Made by a program: the position numbers and the translations under genes
Part shown: positions 2,680-50,688 of the stretch, piece after piece
How the letters are laid out: each line of letters begins with the position of its first letter
Numbering within the stretch: the stretch's first letter is position 1
The notes under the pieces: generated by a model
Databases searched by the model: none
Told to the model about the DNA's origin: nothing
The model's input: only the letters and a program-made list of their open reading frames with translations
IMG/VR virus record: IMGVR_UViG_2675903375_000003
Coordinates: 30,557 to 94,556 of that record
Origin: a virus
Lineage: Duplodnaviria > Caudoviricetes
Length of the DNA: 64,000 nucleotides
Direction: 5' to 3' (one strand)

Positions 2680-4146
2680 ATGACCACCGTGAAGGGGAAG
2701 CTGCTCGGGGTCACCAACCCGCAGCGCGTGGAGATGGAAGCCCTCCTCGTCGACGTGACCGGACAGCCGGCCGTCGGCTACGTCCCCACCCAGGACGGCG
2801 AACTCGTCGCCCCCGTCCGCATCCAGGCGGACAACGACGGGGACTGGACCGCCGACCTGACCGCGAACGATCTGGTGGAGTCGACGTCGGGGGACACACT
2901 GTGGGCGGTCCAGGAGGGCCGAGAGAGGGACGGCACTCCAGTCATCACGTACATCCTCGTGCCGGAGTCCGGTGACGACTGGTGGGTGGGCGACCTGCGC
3001 GTCGACCTTTCCGGCACACAGACCGGGCAGGGAACCGTCGTGTACGTGCCGGGCGAGACCGGGCCCCAAGGCCCCGCGGGCGTGCAGGGCCCGGCCGGCG
3101 CCACCGGACCGACCGGACCGCAAGGTCCCGCGGGGGCAGACGGAGCTGACGGACTGAACGGCGCACCAGGCGTGGCCGGCGAGCAAGGACCCGAAGGACC
3201 AGCAGGACCCACCGGACCCACCGGACCCACCGGGGCAACGGGACCGGCCGGCCCGAAGGGTGACACCGGAGCTCAGGGCGCCAAGGGCGACACCGGAGAC
3301 ACCGGCCCGGCCGGAGCAGCCGGAGCAACAGGGCCCGCCGGTACGCAGGGAGAAGAGGGCCCGCAAGGACCTGAAGGACCGCAGGGGCCCGAAGGACCTG
3401 AAGGACCACAGCCACCGCTCGGCGCGGCAGGCGCCGGTGCAGACATCGCACTGCGCTCCACCGACCCCACGACGACGAACCCCCGCACCCCCACCGCTCA
3501 CGCCGCCTCCCACGCCACCGCCGGCTCCGACCCCCTGTCCCCGGACGCGATCGGCGCGCTGCCCGCCGCGGGCGGCACCATCAACGGCCACCTCGCCGTC
3601 ACCGGCAACGCCCTGGGCCTGGACACCCCGGCCGTCCACGGGGCCGCCGCCTGGTGCTACGACCCCGCGCTGGCCGTGAACTCCTCGCAGCTCTCCAACG
3701 GCGTGCTCTACCTGATCCGCGTCGACATCGCCGCCGCCGTGACCGCCACGAAGCTGCACTGGTGGGTGGGGAACTCCGGCTCGTCCCCAGTCTCCGGGCA
3801 GAACCAGGTCGGCCTGTACGACTCCACCGGCACCCTGCTGGCCTCCGCGACCGTCGACGCCGACATCTCCTCGGCCAACCTGAAGACCACCACCATCACC
3901 GGCCAGCCCCTGTCGGCGGGGGAGTTCTACTGGGTGGGCATGCTGTTCAACGCGTCGGTGCCGCCCACGCTCACCCGGGCCTCCGGCTGGACCGGCGCGG
4001 CCGCCGCCGCGAACCTGGGCCTGCCCGCGGCCGCGGCCCGGTTCGCCACCAACGGCAGCGGCCGGACAGCACTGCCCTCGTCGATCAACCCCGCGTCGAA
4101 CGTGGGCACCGAGTTCGCCGGGCCGTGGGCAGCGGTCAGCGCATGA
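2680..4146 (+). CDS. Collagen-like (Gly-X-Y) protein, probable virion fibre/decoration
   Basis: Uninterrupted G-X-Y run at about 3052-3410 between globular N- and C-domains. Confidence 0.85.
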
Positions 4147-33903: not shown

Positions 33904-34278
33904 ATGTCCACGTCCGGACTGCCCACCGCCCGCCACCAGCTCCCCACCGGAAGCGACCGCCGCGACTTCATCGACTACAACCGCGCCCTCAAGGTCGCCC
34001 GCATCACCGCCAAGGCCCTCGAACTCGGCTGCGACCACGCCATCAGCAACGAGCAGATGGACGCGATCGCCCACGAGATCGACGTGAACCTCCCCGGGAG
34101 CGACGAAACCCGCGCCGCCGTACGCGCCGCCCTGGAGAACCCGTTGACGACCCTGCGCGACAACGACGCCGACTTCGTCTACGCGGTCGTTCGGGCTGCG
34201 AACGACGGCCACCCCTTCCGCTACCGCGACGGACGCGGCCGCACCGTCATGCTCGTCCCCCTCCCCGTGGAGCGGTGA
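33904..34278 (+). CDS. Hypothetical protein
   Basis: GGAGG RBS. Confidence 0.65.
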   Translation: MSTSGLPTARHQLPTGSDRRDFIDYNRALKVARITAKALELGCDHAISNEQMDAIAHEIDVNLPGSDETRAAVRAALENPLTTLRDNDADFVYAVVRAANDGHPFRYRDGRGRTVMLVPLPVER

Positions 34279-35129
34279 GCCCGGTGATCACCGACCCGGA
34301 CAGCATGGTCTACCACCTTCAGGACGAAGACCGGCCGTACTTCTACCTCGGCAGCCCCGAGCCGTCATGGCTGGGCCGTGACGAGTTCTGCGACGAGCCT
34401 CGGGTGCCGCTGTTCGTGTCTCACCGGCGCCTCGCCCGGTTGAAGAAGCTGCCGCGTGCCCGGACGTCGTGGGCGCTGGACTCCGGAGGGTTCACCGAAC
34501 TGTCCATGTACGGGGACTGGACCCTGCACGCCGTCGACTACGCGAAGATCGTGCGCCGGTACCACGACGAGATCGGCTGCATGGAGTGGGCGGCGCCGCA
34601 GGACTGGATGTGCGAGCCGTGGATCCTCGAGAAGACCGGCCGCACGATCCAAGACCACCAGCTGCGCACCGTCGCCAACTACGCCGATCTGCGGTACGAG
34701 GACGACTATCTGCCCTGGATACCGGTCCTTCAGGGTTGGACGCGTGACGACTACCTGCGCTGCGCCGACCTGTACGAAGACCTCGGCCTGGACCTGAGCG
34801 CCGAACCCCTGGTCGGCCTCGGTTCCGTGTGCCGGCGCCAGAACACCGACACAGCCGTCGACATCATCCGCGCCCTGCGTGACCGCGGCGTCACCCGGCT
34901 CCACGGCTTCGGCTTCAAGACCACCGGCCTCCGGGCGGCCCATCAGCTGCTCGAGTCATCGGACTCCATGGCCTGGTCGTACCACGCCCGCCGCTCTGCC
35001 CCCCTCCCAGGATGCACGCACCAGTCCTGCGCGAACTGCCCGCGCTTCGCCGCTCAGTGGCGCCACCGTCTTCTCGCCTCCATGCCGGACTGGCACCAGC
35101 CGGTCCTCGACCTCGATATCGCTGCCTGA
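34275..35129 (+). CDS. tRNA-guanine transglycosylase-fold (TGT/DpdA-like) protein
   Basis: LDSGGF, PQDWMCEP, PVLQG, GLGS, LHGFG, SSDSMAW and C-terminal CTHQSCANC. Confidence 0.75.
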   Translation: MSPVITDPDSMVYHLQDEDRPYFYLGSPEPSWLGRDEFCDEPRVPLFVSHRRLARLKKLPRARTSWALDSGGFTELSMYGDWTLHAVDYAKIVRRYHDEIGCMEWAAPQDWMCEPWILEKTGRTIQDHQLRTVANYADLRYEDDYLPWIPVLQGWTRDDYLRCADLYEDLGLDLSAEPLVGLGSVCRRQNTDTAVDIIRALRDRGVTRLHGFGFKTTGLRAAHQLLESSDSMAWSYHARRSAPLPGCTHQSCANCPRFAAQWRHRLLASMPDWHQPVLDLDIAA

Positions 35130-40934: not shown

Positions 40935-41687
40935 TCAGCTCTGGCGGAGGTAGTAGTTGCGGAGCATCTGCCGCAGGCCCGGCAGGTCGAACTCGGTGGT
41001 GAACTTTCCCGCGCCGGTCGACGTCCGCACGCCTCCGTTCGGGGAGCACATCACCGGCATCCAGCCGGCCTTGTTCTTCACGCACTCGTACGCCTCCACC
41101 GCCCCGTCCTTGTCGCGGTCGGTGTTGGGGTGGTCCAGGCCGAGGATGTGCCCGAGTTCGTGGGCGACGGCGTTCTTCCGGTACGCGTCGTTGAGCGTGG
41201 TGTTCGTGGAGAACCAGGACGTCGACGTCCAGTACTCGGAGTCCATCAGGATGTGCCCGCCGGATGCGGAGCCGTCGGCGAGGTTGTGGCAGGGCAGGGC
41301 CTTGCTGATACCCGCCTTGCCTGTGGGCCGGTACACGTAGTGGACGACGATCCGGCGCTGGCCCGGGCATGCCGAGCGGGGCGTGGAGTCCAGGAGTGTG
41401 GTGACGGTGACGGGTACGCCGACGCTGAGGGTGACCTGGCTGGCGGGTGTCTTCAGGTACGGGGCGAGCTTGGTGCGGGCCCTGCTGTCTGCGAACACCA
41501 CGGTGTAGGGGCCAGGGTGCAGGGAGTAGACGCCGTGGGCGGTTTCGGCTTTCCACCCGGTCCCGGAGTAGACCGGGCTGGAGGTGGTGGCGGCGGCGAC
41601 CAGGGCGGTGCACGCGCTGGTGACGGCGGCTGCGGGTGTGAGGGTGCGCCGGATTCGGCGGGCGATGCGGTGGTTTGGGGTGGGCAT
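40935..41687 (-). CDS. Secreted metzincin (matrixin/snapalysin-like) zinc metalloprotease
   Basis: Signal-peptide-like N-terminus; HELGHILGLDH (HExxHxxGxxH); Met-turn PVMCS. Confidence 0.85.
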   Translation of the reverse strand: MPTPNHRIARRIRRTLTPAAAVTSACTALVAAATTSSPVYSGTGWKAETAHGVYSLHPGPYTVVFADSRARTKLAPYLKTPASQVTLSVGVPVTVTTLLDSTPRSACPGQRRIVVHYVYRPTGKAGISKALPCHNLADGSASGGHILMDSEYWTSTSWFSTNTTLNDAYRKNAVAHELGHILGLDHPNTDRDKDGAVEAYECVKNKAGWMPVMCSPNGGVRTSTGAGKFTTEFDLPGLRQMLRNYYLRQS

Positions 41688-41960
41688 GCCCTTCAGTCTG
41701 GGCACAAAACGCGCGACCGTTGCCACCGCTCGCGCGGGGGGGCCGGAGTGGTTCGGGGTCGCCTACCGCCGTCCGGAAGGCGACCCCTGCGCGCGCTACC
41801 TGGCAGCCTCCCACGCGCCACCGACAAAGGTGAGGCCCCCTGCACCAACAGGGGGCCTCTGCATAGTCCGACGCCTCAACCCGGTTGGAGCCAGAGCAGA
41901 ACCATCAGGAGGCCAGGATAGCGCGAGGTCACCGGACCGTTCCGGGCGCTTGGCGGCCGG

Positions 41961-42359
41961 TCACCGCGGCGTCCACGCCCCGTCTTCGTTGCCGACCAGG
42001 TCGGTGCTGCACAGGTCGCAGATGCCGACCGGCCGGTCCGGTCGGTCTTTCATCTTGCCGACGTCGAGGACGTACTGGTGCGGGCAGTGGTTCTCGAGGA
42101 CGTGCCACACCAGCTGCCCGTCCGGGCTGATGGCGGTGGCGTGGTGTCGGCCGAGCCATGCGGGGAGGGGCTGCCCGGTGGCGACGATCTGGAAGCTGCG
42201 CCGCATGTGCCGGGTGTCGTCACGGCGAGCGAAGTACCAGACGTCGACGGCGTCGGTCCGGCGTACGGCGGCGTGGAGGATGTCGCCGGTGAGGTCGATG
42301 CCGTGGGGTCGGTCGTCGAGGGGGAGCTCGATGCGGTGGATGACGTCGGGGAGGGCCAT
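41961..42359 (-). CDS. Hypothetical phage protein with C-terminal Zn ribbon
   Basis: FQIVATGQPLP...LVWHVLE; CPH...CDLC. Confidence 0.6.
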   Translation of the reverse strand: MALPDVIHRIELPLDDRPHGIDLTGDILHAAVRRTDAVDVWYFARRDDTRHMRRSFQIVATGQPLPAWLGRHHATAISPDGQLVWHVLENHCPHQYVLDVGKMKDRPDRPVGICDLCSTDLVGNEDGAWTPR

Positions 42360-42625
42360 CACGCGGGCTTCTCCGGCCTGCTGACGAGCGCCACGCCCAG
42401 GTACACGACCTTGTCCGGATTTTTGAAGGTCTCACCTTTCAGGACCTTCAGGCCGCCGGACTGGACACACAAATTGGTGCCGTCAAGGACGAGGATCTTC
42501 CCCTTGTAAAGGCGGACTCCTTCGCCCATGACGCGTTGTCCGATGAAGCTGATGTCGTCGCCGACGTGGAGTTCGTTTTTGAGGTAGTCGGTGACCGGGA
42601 GTGTGGGTTCGGTGGTGGGGGCCAT
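42359..42625 (-). CDS. Small SH3/KOW-like hypothetical protein
   Basis: DYLKNELHVGDDISF; coupled to the next gene. Confidence 0.55.
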   Translation of the reverse strand: MAPTTEPTLPVTDYLKNELHVGDDISFIGQRVMGEGVRLYKGKILVLDGTNLCVQSGGLKVLKGETFKNPDKVVYLGVALVSRPEKPA

Positions 42626-42714: not shown

Positions 42715-42927
42715 TCAGCCCCAGGCGGTGTCGAGGGGGGTGACCGGGGTGGTGGTGTCGGTCGGGGTTCCCGGGGTGCCCCAGGCGGTGTCGTCGATGC
42801 CCGCGGTGGTGGCGGGTGCTCCCCAGGCGGTGTCTGCGGTGGTGGCGGCCGGTTCGGTGAGGACGGCGGTGGTGCCGGCGAGGGTGAGGGCGGTGGCGGC
42901 GAGGATGGCGCGTAGGCGTGGTGTCAC
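42715..42927 (-). CDS. Secreted propeptide with three identical DTAWG cores (candidate signalling peptide precursor)
   Basis: GAAAGG RBS; n/h signal peptide; DTAWG x3 with the last at the C-terminus; DNA repeat CCCCAGGCGGTGTC at 42719, 42779, 42821. Confidence 0.8.
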   Translation of the reverse strand: MTPRLRAILAATALTLAGTTAVLTEPAATTADTAWGAPATTAGIDDTAWGTPGTPTDTTTPVTPLDTAWG

Positions 42928-43210
42928 GGCGTGTGCCTTTCGGTCGCTTGGGGCGCTGTTGTGTTGTCGGGAAACGATTGTGGGGCGTCTGTCCCGGTGC
43001 CTTGTGTCCGATCCTGCTGCGAGTCCCGTTCCTGGTGCGTTTCTGGCAGTAGACGCGGCAGGGTGTGGGGAGGATGCGGAGTACAGGCGCCGGGGGACGC
43101 CCCGTGGATAGGCTGTCGTAGGGCGTGTGCATGCCTCAACTGGTTCGCGGTCGCGTATGTGCGCGGCGCGTAGACACGCAAGGATCTTGACGGGGGGTCA
43201 GGCTGTGGCC

Positions 43211-44299
43211 ATGGGTGAACCGGTGGACGGCAGAGGGTACTTGTCGGCGGACGCGATCCGCGTGTACGGGAGGATCGCCCGGCAGGAACGCCTCGGCGAA
43301 CACGATCGCAGGCATGTGCAGGAGCTGGTGGCGTGGGGGGCTGTGGCGTTCAGCGCGGACCGTCCGGACATGCCGGTGGTGCTGGACCCGCAGAAGGCTG
43401 CGCAGCGTCGTCTGGAGCGTGAGCTGGCGGAGGCCGCGGAGCGGGTGGCGATGATGAAGGCGTTGCCGGCGGTGTCGGACGAGTTGGCGCTGCACTACGA
43501 GCGGGCGCAGTGGCGGGCCGGCGGCGGCAGCGAGTTCCTGGACGATCCGGTGACGGTGAATGCCCGTCTGGATGACGTGGTCGGGTCGGCGGAGGTGGAG
43601 ATTCTGGCGGCGCAGCCGGGCGGGCCGCGGACGCGGGAGTTGCTGAATCGTGCCGTCACCCGGGATACGGAGGCTGTGCAGCGCGGTGTCGTGCTGCGGA
43701 CCCTGTACCGGGACACGGTCCGCGACCACACGGTGACCGCAGAAGGCGTGCGGACGATGTCGGGGCGCGGCGGGCAGTACCGGACGCTGGTGGGCCCGTT
43801 CCAGCGGTGCATCGTGGTGGACCGCAGGCAGGCGTTCATCTCCGACCACGTGGTGGAGGGCGCGCCCTCGCATGCGGGCTGGCATGTGACGGACCGGGCG
43901 TTGGTGGCGTTCATCGCTGTGGTGTTCGATGAGGCGTGGCATCGGGCGTCGCCGTGGCACGGCGAGCTCCGTACCCAGGGCGGGGCCGACGGTTCGGTGG
44001 ACGCGGTGTCGGGCCCGGGCAGCGGGGTACGGACGAGCGCGCTGCAGCGGGCGATCCTGCGGGACATGGCGGCCGGGATCGAGCAGCGGCTGACCGCGAA
44101 CCGGATGGGGATCCGGCTGCGCCGTCTCACGGACGAGATCAAGGATCTGAAGGAACTGTTGGGGGTTCAGACGCTGCCGGAGCTGACGTACTGGTGGGCT
44201 TTGTCCCCGGACCGGCTCGTGGACGACGGCGCCCCCGCCACGGTGGACGTGGCAGGGGCGGGCATCGCCGGCGCGCTCGGCGTGGAGACGGCCGCGTAG
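43211..44299 (+). CDS. Transcription regulator: degenerate wHTH, coiled coil, TrmB/PLD-like sensor domain, LuxR-like HTH
   Basis: EILAAQPGGPR, RGVVLRTLY, RCIVVDRRQAFI, FDEAWHRASPW; C-terminal QRAILRDMAAG...ANRMGI...LKELLGV. Confidence 0.8.
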   Translation: MGEPVDGRGYLSADAIRVYGRIARQERLGEHDRRHVQELVAWGAVAFSADRPDMPVVLDPQKAAQRRLERELAEAAERVAMMKALPAVSDELALHYERAQWRAGGGSEFLDDPVTVNARLDDVVGSAEVEILAAQPGGPRTRELLNRAVTRDTEAVQRGVVLRTLYRDTVRDHTVTAEGVRTMSGRGGQYRTLVGPFQRCIVVDRRQAFISDHVVEGAPSHAGWHVTDRALVAFIAVVFDEAWHRASPWHGELRTQGGADGSVDAVSGPGSGVRTSALQRAILRDMAAGIEQRLTANRMGIRLRRLTDEIKDLKELLGVQTLPELTYWWALSPDRLVDDGAPATVDVAGAGIAGALGVETAA

Positions 44300-45087: not shown

Positions 45088-45831
45088 TCACTCGGCCTCG
45101 TTCGGGAGTTCGGGCTGCATCTCTGCGTGGCCCTTCGCCTCCCACTGCCGTCGGTAGGAGTCGGCGGGGATGGCGCAGTCGTCGCTGGAGCGGGCGTGGA
45201 AGACCGCGGAGTCGTTGCCCCAGTCGGGCCGCCACAGGTTCGGGCCGGGGAACCGTACGGCCTTCATCCTCGAGGTGATGCGCTCGCCGCAGCCGAGGCA
45301 GTGGCCGGCGGGGATGGCCATGAGGCGTTCGGTGTTGGCCATCTCGTGGTCGACCATGGCCTCGTTGGTGGCATGGGTGCAGGGCGGGATCTCGTTGCAC
45401 AGGCGGCACACGCTGTAGTGCTCGGGGAGGACGTAGAACGGGCGGGAGGCGCGTACTGCGTAGTGCTCGGGCTTCGCCTTGGGCCGGTCGGCGGGCTGGA
45501 TGACGAGGACGAGGGGGCGGTGCTCCCACGTGGCGCGCTCAGGCTGCTCGCCCAGATCCCGGCCGACGACGACCTGCTCCACCCACTCCTTGGTGAACCG
45601 CTTCCACTCCGTCATGAAGTGCTCCGGCCACAGGTCCAGCGGGCGCTCGGTGACCTCGAGAACGCGGTACGCCTTCCGGTCACTCCACACGATGATCGTG
45701 CCGGGATGGATACGGGTGCTGTAGTCGGTCTCCTTGAGGTACCGCTTGACGCCCTCTGCGGGCAGATAGCCGGTCTTCCGGCACTGCTGCGGACTCCACT
45801 GCCCCAGCACGACACGCATCGGGATACGCAC
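45088..45831 (-). CDS. Hypothetical protein with Zn-binding motifs
   Basis: GAAGGAG RBS; CRLC..PPC, CLGC. Confidence 0.65.
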   Translation of the reverse strand: MRIPMRVVLGQWSPQQCRKTGYLPAEGVKRYLKETDYSTRIHPGTIIVWSDRKAYRVLEVTERPLDLWPEHFMTEWKRFTKEWVEQVVVGRDLGEQPERATWEHRPLVLVIQPADRPKAKPEHYAVRASRPFYVLPEHYSVCRLCNEIPPCTHATNEAMVDHEMANTERLMAIPAGHCLGCGERITSRMKAVRFPGPNLWRPDWGNDSAVFHARSSDDCAIPADSYRRQWEAKGHAEMQPELPNEAE

Positions 45832-49183: not shown

Positions 49184-49360
49184 GTGGTGTGGCTGGTGTC
49201 CGGTTGACGTCCTCCCCACGGCCGTAGCCGGGGGATTCCCTCCCTGGCGTCCGCGAGCGGCTCGCCTTGAGTCGGGTTCCTGTTTCATCGGGCCCTGCCC
49301 TGCCGAAGCTGGGTCTTACGGTCCCTCCGCAGGCGTTTTAGTTGTCCGCCCGTCCGGCGG
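49184..49360 (-). ncRNA. Predicted omegaRNA (reRNA) scaffold plus flank-derived guide
   Basis: Standard location from the tnpB 3' end to the right end; guide would read CCGGACACCAGCCACACCAC; boundaries approximate. Confidence 0.6.
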
Positions 49361-50459
49361 CCAAGACGATTCGGGCCGCGTTCACGTCCCGGTCGTGGGT
49401 GGTCTGGCAGCCCGCGCACGTCCAGGTCCGGACGTCGAGGGGCTTGGGTCCGTCGATGACGAAGCAGACGTGGCAGGTCTGTGAGGACGGCAGCCAGCGG
49501 TCGACGCGGCCGAAGGTCCGTCCGTAGCGGACGGCCTTGTACTCCAACATCGAGACGAACTGCGACCACCCGGCGTCGTGCACCGACTTGGCGAGCCGGG
49601 TGCGGGCGAGACCGTTCACCGCAAGGTCCTCGACGTACACCGCTTGGTTTTCGCGGATCAACGTGGTGGAGAGCTTGTGGTGGTGGTCTCGCCGCGCGTC
49701 GGCGACTCGGGCATGAGCCCGTGCGACCTTGATGACGGCCTTCTTGCGGTTGGCCGATCCCTTGGCTTTCCGACTGAGGTTCTGCTGCGCCTTGCGGAGC
49801 TTGCGCTCGGCGCGGCGGAAGAACTTCGGCGCGGTGATCTTCCGGCCGTCGGAGAGCACGGCGAAGTGCGTCAGGCCAAGGTCTATGCCGATCTCGCCGT
49901 CCGTCTCGGGCAGGGTCTCGGTCGGGTCGGCCTGGACGACGAACGAGGCGAAGTACCTCCCGGCCGCATCCTTGATCACGGTCACGCTAGAGGGGTCCGA
50001 CGGCAGCGGACGGGACCAGCGCACGGCGACCCCGCCGACCTTCGGCAGGTACAGCCTCCCGTCCGGACGGACCCTGAACCCAGTTGGTTTTGTGTAGCGG
50101 GCGACTTGCCGGTTGTCCCGCTTCGACTTGAACCGGGGTGCGCCGATCTTCGGGCCCTTGCGCTTGCCGGACAGGGAGTCGAAGAAGTTCCGGTAGGCGG
50201 TGTCGAGGTCGCGTAGGGCTTGCTGCATGACGCCGACGGGGGCGTTGACCAGCCACGCCCGCTCGGCGGTGCTCTTCGCCTGGGTGATGAGCGTCTTCGA
50301 CAGGTCGCCGGTCTTCGGGAACGGCAGCTTCTGCGAGTGCGCTTCCTGCCGAATGCGGAGTGCGTCGTTGTACACCACCCGCGCGCATCCAAACGTCCGG
50401 GCAAGCGCTGTGCGCTGACCAGGCGTCGGGTAGACGCGGAAGTTGTACCGGAGCTGCAT
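49338..50459 (-). CDS. tnpB: RNA-guided endonuclease TnpB
   Basis: MQLRYNFRVYP...FGCARVVYN; RuvC GIDLG, VEDL, DRDVNAA; Zn finger CHVC/CAGC intact. Confidence 0.96.
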   Translation of the reverse strand: MQLRYNFRVYPTPGQRTALARTFGCARVVYNDALRIRQEAHSQKLPFPKTGDLSKTLITQAKSTAERAWLVNAPVGVMQQALRDLDTAYRNFFDSLSGKRKGPKIGAPRFKSKRDNRQVARYTKPTGFRVRPDGRLYLPKVGGVAVRWSRPLPSDPSSVTVIKDAAGRYFASFVVQADPTETLPETDGEIGIDLGLTHFAVLSDGRKITAPKFFRRAERKLRKAQQNLSRKAKGSANRKKAVIKVARAHARVADARRDHHHKLSTTLIRENQAVYVEDLAVNGLARTRLAKSVHDAGWSQFVSMLEYKAVRYGRTFGRVDRWLPSSQTCHVCFVIDGPKPLDVRTWTCAGCQTTHDRDVNAARIVLAAGRADN

Positions 50460-50504
50460 GTACATAAGTGTACATGAATGCGGCGCCTGTACGGTGGTGT
50501 ACAT
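50458..50504. promoter_or_regulatory. TGTAC(A) palindrome array between divergent tnpB and phd-like genes
   Basis: TGTACA-TAAG-TGTACA and TGTACG-GTGG-TGTACA; both start codons abut a TGTAC. Confidence 0.7.
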
Positions 50505-50688
50505 GAATGAGGAATCCAATGAACTCTCCGTTGCTGATGCCCGGCGCCAGTTCGCAGACGTCCTGAACGACGCCTCAGCGCGGGGCCGAATCACATACAT
50601 CACGAGCAGGGGCCGGCGAGTGGCTGCCGTAGTCCCGCTGGCCGTCGCCGAACAGGCCGAGGCCGGAGCCGGGCAGACCCCGCCCTGA
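50503..50688 (+). CDS. Orphan Phd/YefM-family antitoxin-like DNA-binding protein
   Basis: LSVADARRQFADVLN...ITYITSRGRRVAAVVP; no toxin gene follows. Confidence 0.85.
   Translation: MNEESNELSVADARRQFADVLNDASARGRITYITSRGRRVAAVVPLAVAEQAEAGAGQTPP

Follow-up and report, generated by a model that had tools for sequence, protein, structure and literature searches.

In the RRNPP systems of Bacillota, such as Rap-Phr, NprR-NprX and PlcR-PapR, a signalling peptide is exported as part of a precursor, trimmed by extracellular proteolysis, imported by an oligopeptide permease (Opp) and bound by a cytoplasmic receptor; arbitrium (AimP-AimR) is the form found in Bacillus phages. To our knowledge, phage peptide communication is so far known only from such arbitrium-type (RRNPP) systems of Bacillota, and we likewise know of essentially no actinobacterial peptide quorum sensing whose genes have been described, thinking in this group having centred on butyrolactones. 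Here we analyse a 64,000-nucleotide stretch of DNA (‘the window’: bases 30557–94556 of the 94,556-bp IMG/VR virus record IMGVR_UViG_2675903375_000003, which is rated complete), in which a short gene for an exported-type precursor with three DTAWG pentapeptides (‘cores’) lies back to back with the gene for a regulator. The element that carries the pair has phage gene content and relatives deposited as circular plasmids, and is therefore a temperate actinophage of the phage-plasmid type. The anatomy of the locus, the conserved pairing of the two genes, the selection on the core, its diversification and its covariation with the regulator are the parts of a pheromone model that we observe directly. 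On balance, the sequences lead us to favour the reading that the two genes encode a peptide pheromone and the cytoplasmic receptor-regulator that senses it, analogous but not homologous to arbitrium and the RRNPP systems. The same analogous, non-homologous actinobacterial peptide-receptor pair had been proposed in an earlier reading of this DNA (hereafter the original prediction), and the pairing, the core selection, the covariation and the non-TPR nature of the receptor all speak for it.

The precursor gene (42715..42927, minus strand) encodes 70 amino acids (aa) between a GTG start and a TGA stop in the list of open reading frames (ORFs). A GAAAGG ribosome-binding site lies 8 nt upstream of the GTG, the third-position G+C content (GC3) of 0.87 is the coding-frame signature for 70% GC DNA, and the NCBI gene caller reports the same 70-aa gene on identical contigs, which bears out the predicted 70-aa ORF with a good ribosome-binding site. 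Residues 1–31 (42835..42927, minus strand) form the putative export signal that had been proposed, read from the translation as a basic n-region, a hydrophobic core and T-T-A before the first Asp. This layout is common to all precursor homologues, many of which carry A-x-A immediately before the first core (alignment A2). As predicted, three identical DTAWG cores follow, at aa 32–36 (42820..42834), 46–50 (42778..42792) and 66–70 (42718..42732), all on the minus strand, with the stop codon directly after the last, which thus ends at the exact C-terminus; residue 32 is the start of the first core, which corrects the original prediction. The threefold repetition of the core DNA is likewise as had been described: the 14-nt GACACCGCCTGGGG occurs exactly three times in the 64 kb, always within the precursor ORF, where shuffles expect 0.00 occurrences. 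The repeat is real and far beyond chance. No Pfam, NCBIfam or PHROG model matches the peptide. A detector for an export signal combined with a C-terminal D-x-x-W returns a single match in the window, the precursor ORF itself.

Across 283 bp lies the divergent regulator gene (43211..44299, plus strand; 362 aa, GC3 0.89), the putative peptide receptor according to its homologues, structural model and fold matches; gap, length and coordinates agree with the original prediction. Translation may in truth begin two codons upstream, at a GTG at 43205 that follows a conserved GGGGGA-type ribosome-binding site at a fitting distance, and a TTG/GTG-GCC-AT block at the regulator start is kept in relatives. 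On its own the window protein matches no Pfam, NCBIfam or PHROG model; 384 homologues were found in a 90%-clustered protein database. An AlphaFold2 model built on 28 relatives (pLDDT 82.9) comprises an N-terminal winged helix-turn-helix (wHTH; aa 13–57, 43247..43381), a long 44-residue helix (aa 60–103, 43388..43519), an alpha/beta domain resembling phospholipase D (PLD) that is the putative peptide-binding part (aa 107–245, 43529..43945) and, after residue 245, a disordered linker leading to a four-helix C-terminal HTH of the LuxR/GerE type (aa 277–336, 44039..44218), all on the plus strand. In Foldseek searches the wHTH, helix and alpha/beta part match TrmBL2/TrmB (3qph, 5bpd, 2f5t; E 6e-11 to 3e-6), and the alpha/beta domain matches the PLD-fold proteins Nuc (1byr), NucT, Zucchini and PLD3/4 as well as the TrmB sugar-binding domain 2f5t. 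The TrmBL2/TrmB matches make it probable that the long helix serves as a dimerisation coiled coil, as in TrmB proteins. The family profile (alignment A1) matches the NarL/LuxR DNA-binding domain (1je8, E 2.4e-5); among the 28 relatives Pfam GerE matches 14 and Regulator_TrmB four, the window protein alone falling below the GerE threshold. Model, fold and profile searches thus agree with the predicted order of wHTH, coiled coil, TrmB/PLD-like domain and LuxR-type HTH, and also with the view that the receptor lies outside the RRNPP/TPR proteins: no TPR or RRNPP model matched, and the fold is that of TrmB and PLD.

The PLD fold is present in the regulator, and the sequence retains a relic of the PLD motif, H221-x-G223-x4-D228 (43871..43894, plus strand), with H221 and D228 in at least 90% of alignment A1 and the catalytic Lys of H-x-K-x4-D replaced by G223. 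As the catalytic Lys is absent, the domain is probably a binding module and not an enzyme. Residues N117, R140, R151, D152 and R199 are conserved even in distant members, and it is plausible that the three Arg in the former phosphate pocket accommodate the carboxylate at the C-terminus of the peptide and its invariant Asp.

To follow the pair through its relatives, we took regulator loci from genomes, IMG/VR and metagenomes and scanned the DNA upstream of each regulator. Among the non-redundant loci of the close family a peptide gene is present in 41 and absent from 29, and 11 are too short to judge. Each of the 41 encodes an exported-type precursor with one to three D-x-x-W-G cores, the last of them at the exact C-terminus in all except L003. 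In the phage and phage-plasmid lineages, every non-truncated member with enough upstream sequence has the divergent small ORF, built from an export signal, spacers rich in Thr, Pro, Ala and Asp, and one to three D-[T/S/P]-x-W-G cores; the 29 loci without a peptide consist of a truncated gene (L021) and 28 chromosomal paralogues. Peptide and regulator genes are adjacent in all peptide-bearing loci; close-family pairs diverge across a gap of ~300 bp, and three distant loci have the genes in convergent orientation. The small ORFs that the original prediction expected beside regulator homologues are therefore present in these 41 non-redundant loci, and the association reaches down to 31% regulator identity and to still more distant family members. 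In L003 itself, a 94.8-kb relative, the precursor retains DTTWG twice, but its tail has lost the terminal core (L003:3250–4000, minus strand); its peptide gene is probably decaying.

The homologue at 31% identity belongs to Streptomyces phage Chymera, the only cultured phage with a regulator homologue, in which the precursor gene (gp30) is divergent from the regulator gene (gp29). Gp30 has an A-Q-A signal cleavage site with DPGWG directly after it, then a spacer, then DPGWG at the C-terminus, and the pair adjoins a tyrosine integrase and an immunity repressor. In Chymera-like viral contigs the two DPGWG copies are kept at 68% regulator identity, with a changed spacer. The 89.7-kb plasmid pSAM1 (L108, NZ_CP012383.1) encodes a precursor with three DTAWG (SAM23877_RS36295, 3465–3692, minus strand) beside the regulator RS36290 (4001–5068, plus strand), both annotated as hypothetical. 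The association is specific from either side: the detector found 69 ORFs in the fetched DNA as against one in 914 kb of reversed DNA, and an inverse DNA pattern (two D-T-x-W-G plus TGA) found four IMG/VR contigs, all of the ~90-kb family and all with the regulator alongside, which in the sole new contig is again divergent from the peptide. Only the peptide and the regulator are constant in the synteny of the loci, an 88-aa ORF, a DUF7352 gene and a metzincin gene being variable. The cassette is the pair and its ~300-bp control region.

In an alignment of 35 precursors D66 is the sole invariant residue and M1, W69 and G70 are kept in at least 90%, the spacers being free to vary. Amino-acid cores are identical within 31 of the 32 multi-copy precursors, and in 24 of these 31 the copies differ at synonymous sites (Ser as TCC and AGC within one precursor; four differences between the two Chymera copies). 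Core identity is therefore held at the protein level and not by recent duplication; selection thus acts on the core amino acids, as the original prediction had it. Between elements the core diversifies: the close family has 14 C-terminal forms, among them DTAWG, DTTWG, DTGWG, DTWWG, DTHWG, DTSWG, DSAWG, DSTWG, DSVWG and DPGWG, and endings such as DTCWC and DSVW. A few precursors mix two cores and may be switching intermediates. The predicted release of three signals per precursor does not hold in general, as the copy number ranges from one to three and only the C-terminal copy is universal; this is always the copy kept in single-copy precursors, which points to a peptide with a free C-terminus as the functional unit.

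On the regulator tree the core types follow clades, with independent switches: DTWWG has two separate origins, and DTGWG, DTHWG and DTCWC emerged inside clades of other types. Ten regulators of the DTTWG clade have D121, R147 and S148 without exception; the four with a switched peptide have all three residues changed (4/4), and among the 1001 ways of choosing four proteins from fourteen only the real partition yields three such columns. We also ran an independent-pairs scan of all 344 columns against Thr/Ser at core position 3, on a tree built without columns 139–149; the top three of the 344 are, in order, columns 148 (Ser), 147 and 121, a ranking taken over few independent pairs, so that the predicted peptide-receptor covariation is seen at these three positions. 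Receptors for A-type and G-type cores separate at 141 and 144, which lie in the same helix as 147 and 148 (aa 141–152, 43631..43666, plus strand) next to the invariant R151 and D152; this location is suggestive.

The 283 bp shared by the two genes (42928..43210; alignment A3) are more conserved across elements than either flanking gene, with 58 columns that do not vary among 27 elements; the regulators of these elements share only ~50% identity with that of the window. Two adjacent 14-bp palindromes, (T/C)GCG-N6-CGC(A/G), are candidate operators 25–55 bp upstream of the regulator start (43152..43180); in the 27 loci their half-sites are kept, their spacers are free and some changes are symmetric, and the double site is unique in the window. 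A conserved inverted repeat has its left arm GGGGCGTC at 42982..42989, in the invariant GGGGCG block of A3, and its right arm GACGCCCC at 43096..43103, inside the near-invariant GGGGGACGCCCC block, 106 nt apart; the invariant blocks are GGGGCG, CTGCTGCGA, CTGGCAGT, GGGAGGA and GGGGGACGCCCC. No further copies of the candidate operator or of GGGGGACGCCCC beyond chance were found in the window. Searches of the control region gave no Rfam family match, and a scan for sigma-70 consensus promoters gave none. RNAalifold returns mostly invariant pairs with a covariation term of -1.18 kcal/mol, the compensatory changes being confined to the two short palindromes, where they fit operators as well as hairpins; we judge this covariation too weak to call an RNA element. 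We take the conserved elements to be candidate operators and promoter elements serving a regulator that has two domains for DNA binding.

The regulator family is far larger than its phage members: at E < 0.001 its profile finds 3,699 cluster representatives (50% identity), and there are 9–11 paralogues per Streptomyces or Kitasatospora genome, often clustered. One Kitasatospora cluster includes a convergent neighbouring precursor with three DWHWG. Among distant representatives four of the five fetched contexts have a divergent exported-type peptide, with the cores DSTWG/DSTW, DIGWG (twice), DIQW (three times) with DLQW, and DPTWD, and two or three of the five contexts contain phage-type genes. 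In an even, class-wide sample of Actinomycetes the regulator matched in 33 of 301 genomes, of sizes from 2.8 to 10.7 Mb, and seven of 29 loci have a peptide (DSQWG, DSTWG, DSKWD, DTVWD, DTGWD) within 1.5-kb flanks. Given these peptides beside distant relatives, the system is not phage-specific, phages and phage-plasmids carrying members of a broader actinobacterial family. Of the predicted phage/plasmid system, the presence in phages and phage-plasmids thus stands, and the confinement to them does not, since it is found on actinobacterial chromosomes too. Tandem clusters of three to five distant paralogues lie on Streptomyces/Kitasatospora chromosomes at G001:C1:4660442–4663263, G003:C6:56457–63331 and G002:C6:70211–74530.

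The 28 chromosomal Streptomyces paralogues without a peptide (L005–L009, L011–L016, L018–L020, L022–L023, L027–L029, L031, L033–L037, L039–L040 and L059; 43–55% identical in the matched segment) form three clades nested in peptide-bearing phage lineages. They may be domesticated ‘orphan’ receptors; perhaps the hosts use them to eavesdrop on the peptides of phages. At L059, the one such locus with gene calls, the divergent neighbour is a gene for an XRE HTH_31/MLTR_LBD regulator. A W-T-R-x-x-C-x-x-C motif upstream of the chromosomal paralogues was rejected as a peptide: it sits at the start of the XRE gene and would be another reading frame of that gene's N-terminus. One clade has a short ORF between the regulator and the XRE gene (L005:3608–3709, minus strand, and the matching places in L007 and L009), which has no export signal, a variable N-terminal part, the ending R-R-D-S-A-W-G-C and GC3 of 0.91, and which is absent from the sister loci L006, L013 and L037. 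It could be a remnant of a peptide gene, a leaderless peptide or a chance ORF.

On the precursor's strand, a terminator scan found none between the precursor and the genes after it. An 88-aa ORF (42359..42625, minus strand), supported by the frame plot and an NCBI call, has no family and no Pfam match, and recurs in few related loci; the DUF7352 gene (41961..42362, minus strand; Pfam PF24043, E 3.6e-18) is found in six other related loci besides identical contigs. Both are variable cargo. Beyond them lies a gene for an exported metzincin-type metalloprotease (HExxHxxGxxH; 40935..41726, minus strand), which has weak Pfam/NCBIfam metallopeptidase matches and no solved relative by sequence. The metzincin accompanies the pair in nine of the 41 loci that have a peptide gene, which it immediately follows in L032 and L076, and is possibly a precursor-processing enzyme or a regulated secreted cargo. 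Domain searches of the neighbours, in the window and in related loci, found no radical-SAM, P450, YcaO, lanthionine or prenyl-transferase domain, and the prediction that no enzyme of ribosomally synthesised and post-translationally modified peptides (RiPPs) is adjacent is upheld.

The window has a G+C content of ~70%. Elsewhere it holds genes for an endolysin, a tail fibre, two tyrosine recombinases, a DNA methyltransferase, a WhiB-like protein and a replication initiator. The protein database searched lists near-identical regulators under Streptomyces scabiei, and the deposited relatives of the element are circular Streptomyces plasmids of ~88–94 kb that include pSAM1 of S. ambofaciens ATCC 23877, a plasmid described as having a prophage-like sequence with strong expression in HT medium (PMC11302927). 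Kinship with pZL12/phiZL12 at the locus was rejected: the sole match, of 368 bp, lies in another part of the stretch that was queried, and no regulator homologue was found. The leftward phage genes contain an inserted IS605/OrfB-type transposase (49338–50603, minus strand; PHROG 506, E 1e-116), which in L056, an identical contig, is adjoined on the plus strand by a gene for a small PhdYeFM-like antitoxin. In the rightward block upstream, a DpdA-like gene (34275–35129, plus strand; PF23859, 7-deazaguanine DNA-modification system) hints at modification of the phage DNA. A 247-aa protein without an assigned function (45088–45831, minus strand) strongly matches PHROG 26381 (E 1e-71), and the protein is seen again near the regulator 3′ end in several relatives.

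If the pair does act as a pheromone and receptor, the precursor would be exported, and signal-peptide cleavage together with extracellular proteases would free short peptides ending in D-x-x-W-G, the C-terminal copy being the universal unit and the other copies amplifications; in some elements the co-located metzincin may help the processing. The peptide would build up with the density of element-carrying cells and be taken up by an oligopeptide permease. Streptomyces indeed imports signalling oligopeptides via BldK, an Opp-type permease (PMC11303876). Inside the cell, the peptide would bind the PLD-like domain of the regulator, where the invariant Arg, Asn and Asp residues would hold the invariant Asp, the Trp-Gly and the C-terminal carboxylate, and the variable middle of the core would be recognised by residues 121, 141, 144, 147 and 148. 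Binding would then shift the seating of the two DNA-binding domains on the conserved sites of the 283-bp control region, and the regulator gene, the operon of the peptide and its cargo, and perhaps further phage genes would be transcribed differently as a result. The decision under control may be lysis-lysogeny, transfer or the expression of cargo genes. The position of the Chymera pair beside an integrase and a repressor suggests control of lysogeny. The targets visible in the window are the pair itself and the leftward operon, with its variable cargo that includes a secreted protease; density-dependent expression of ‘public goods’, or of the processing enzyme, would fit these just as well.

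Several observations weigh against such a pheromone and receptor. Close to home, 28 chromosomal paralogues have no peptide, nor do most loci of the class-wide sample within their 1.5-kb flanks, and the regulator family is therefore not strictly dependent on an adjacent peptide. Internal core copies need cuts on both sides, and the precursors have no conserved flanking cleavage motif save V-T-P-L before the last copy. In the 64-kb window conserved candidate operators occur only in the pair's own control region, and no connection with genes for lysis or lysogeny is therefore visible. Independent switches behind the covariation are few: with at most five supported independent pairs the scan is to be read as a ranking, as no sign test on five can reach significance, L131, L119 and L042 are exceptions to it, and the number of columns separating A-type from G-type receptors does not differ from that of other partitions. 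Part of this fits a different reading, in which the precursor is a regulated secreted effector: it, or fragments of it, would act outside the cell on the envelope, on the receptor of a competing phage, on other microbes, or on a metal or cell-wall ligand through its Asp and Trp, and the regulator would sense an unrelated small molecule, with no feedback of the peptide on the regulator. The many loci with a regulator and no peptide are what this reading expects, the genes after the peptide are variable, moron-like cargo that includes an exported protease, and the TrmB relatives found as fold matches bind sugars. Nevertheless, mere regulation would not be expected to keep the two genes together down to ~30% regulator identity, in different phage types and in both orientations, nor to change pocket residues of the regulator along with the core, and identical repeated cores, a universal free C-terminal one and free spacers look like released short peptides and not like a folded effector. 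We therefore regard a secreted effector as unlikely.

Two further readings retain a pheromone and change its chemistry or its sensor. The core might be altered by a host enzyme encoded elsewhere, for example at its Trp as in ComX, and then be sensed by the regulator or by a different receptor. RiPP precursors commonly have several cores, and the core Trp is kept in at least 90% of the 35 precursors; against this, neither the window nor the related loci encode a modifying enzyme close to the pair, the leader is of the export type and not of the RiPP type, and elements that move between hosts could not rely on a particular host enzyme. A modified peptide is accordingly a highly improbable answer. 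Alternatively, since Agr- and Com-type peptide systems sense at the membrane, a host membrane sensor might detect the peptide from outside, with the adjacent regulator acting downstream of it or being unrelated; in Chymera a gene for a small two-helix membrane protein does follow the peptide gene. Yet no kinase or membrane sensor is conserved beside the pair, whose sole constant partner for the peptide is a cytoplasmic regulator with ligand-domain residues that co-vary with the core, and we give extracellular sensing hardly any credence. A peptide pheromone read by the adjacent regulator accounts better than any of these three alternatives for the conserved pairing and for the covariation.

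The original prediction had allowed for the pair having been characterised already; in the searchable literature we found no description of these peptides, or of this type of regulator in phages. With roughly equal weight for and against, we raise the broader proposal that D-x-x-W-G peptides and TrmB/PLD-like/LuxR regulators form a large undescribed pheromone-receptor family of Actinomycetota, the first to be genetically defined there, that its phage and phage-plasmid members are the first phage peptide-communication systems outside RRNPP/arbitrium, and that core and pocket co-evolve into private ‘dialects’. If the pair does act as a pheromone and receptor, signalling between phages or between elements has a second, independently evolved solution, a dead PLD fold has become a peptide sensor in a new receptor architecture, and the family, with its thousands of members (3,699 clusters), is a source of orthogonal signal-receptor pairs for the engineering of Streptomyces. 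Both pSAM1 in S. ambofaciens ATCC 23877 and phage Chymera on S. venezuelae are tractable systems. As for signals of the hosts themselves, the gene and the receptor of the bld signal are, as far as we know, not defined. The Opp-type import of the BldK-dependent oligopeptide signal of S. coelicolor (PMC11303876) is the very route that our model needs, and the pair would offer candidate substrates for this long-known import route of Streptomyces development.

How does the regulator compare with the protein families whose parts it combines? TrmB proteins are best known from archaea. With TrmB and TrmBL2 (3qph, 5bpd, 2f5t) it shares the wHTH, the long dimerisation-type helix and the PLD-like part with which the effector domain begins. 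In TrmB the other half of that domain, which binds sugar, sits where the LuxR-type HTH lies here; in the model this beta-rich subdomain is missing and the LuxR-type HTH follows the PLD-like domain in its place, so that the regulator is not a canonical TrmB protein, and its presumed ligand is a peptide and not a sugar. At its C-terminus the protein does carry the four-helix GerE-type domain of the LuxR family, by the profile match and by GerE matches in 14 of the 28 relatives. It lacks the Lys of the catalytic H-x-K-x4-D motif of phospholipase D enzymes. The precursor, for its part, does not resemble a RiPP locus, as no dedicated modifying enzyme accompanies it and its N-terminus is an export signal and not a RiPP leader.

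With the RRNPP systems the pair would share the whole route set out above, from export and extracellular proteolysis to Opp import and a cytoplasmic receptor. It has an exported-type propeptide with a C-terminal core, adjacent to the regulator gene; as the receptor has no TPR domain, the pair is not a member of RRNPP. NprR-NprX adjoins a secreted metalloprotease gene, as the metzincin accompanies our pair in some loci. Tandemly duplicated RRNPP propeptides are a precedent for the repeated cores (PMC11343458). What sets the pair apart from RRNPP is the non-homologous receptor, the D-x-x-W-G core with its free C-terminus, and the occurrence in actinobacteria and their phages. Phages also encode receptors for signals of their hosts, namely LuxR-type acyl-homoserine lactone (AHL) receptors and VqmA of vibriophage VP882. 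Like them, the regulator would be a phage-borne, ligand-responsive factor with a LuxR-type HTH that reads population information; they sense small molecules of the host, whereas here the element itself encodes the signal peptide along with a receptor whose ligand domain is unrelated. Arbitrium resembles our system in being phage-borne, in having an exported-type precursor with a C-terminal short peptide beside the gene for a cytoplasmic HTH receptor-regulator, and in peptides whose C-terminal part is conserved and whose other positions vary between phages; the place of the Chymera pair beside an integrase and an immunity repressor is a further likeness. No aimX-like target was recognised. There are further differences from arbitrium: the receptor is a TrmB-like wHTH with a PLD-like domain and a LuxR HTH and not a TPR/RRNPP protein, the genes are divergent here and co-directional there, the hosts are Actinomycetota, and the precursor often carries two or three cores.

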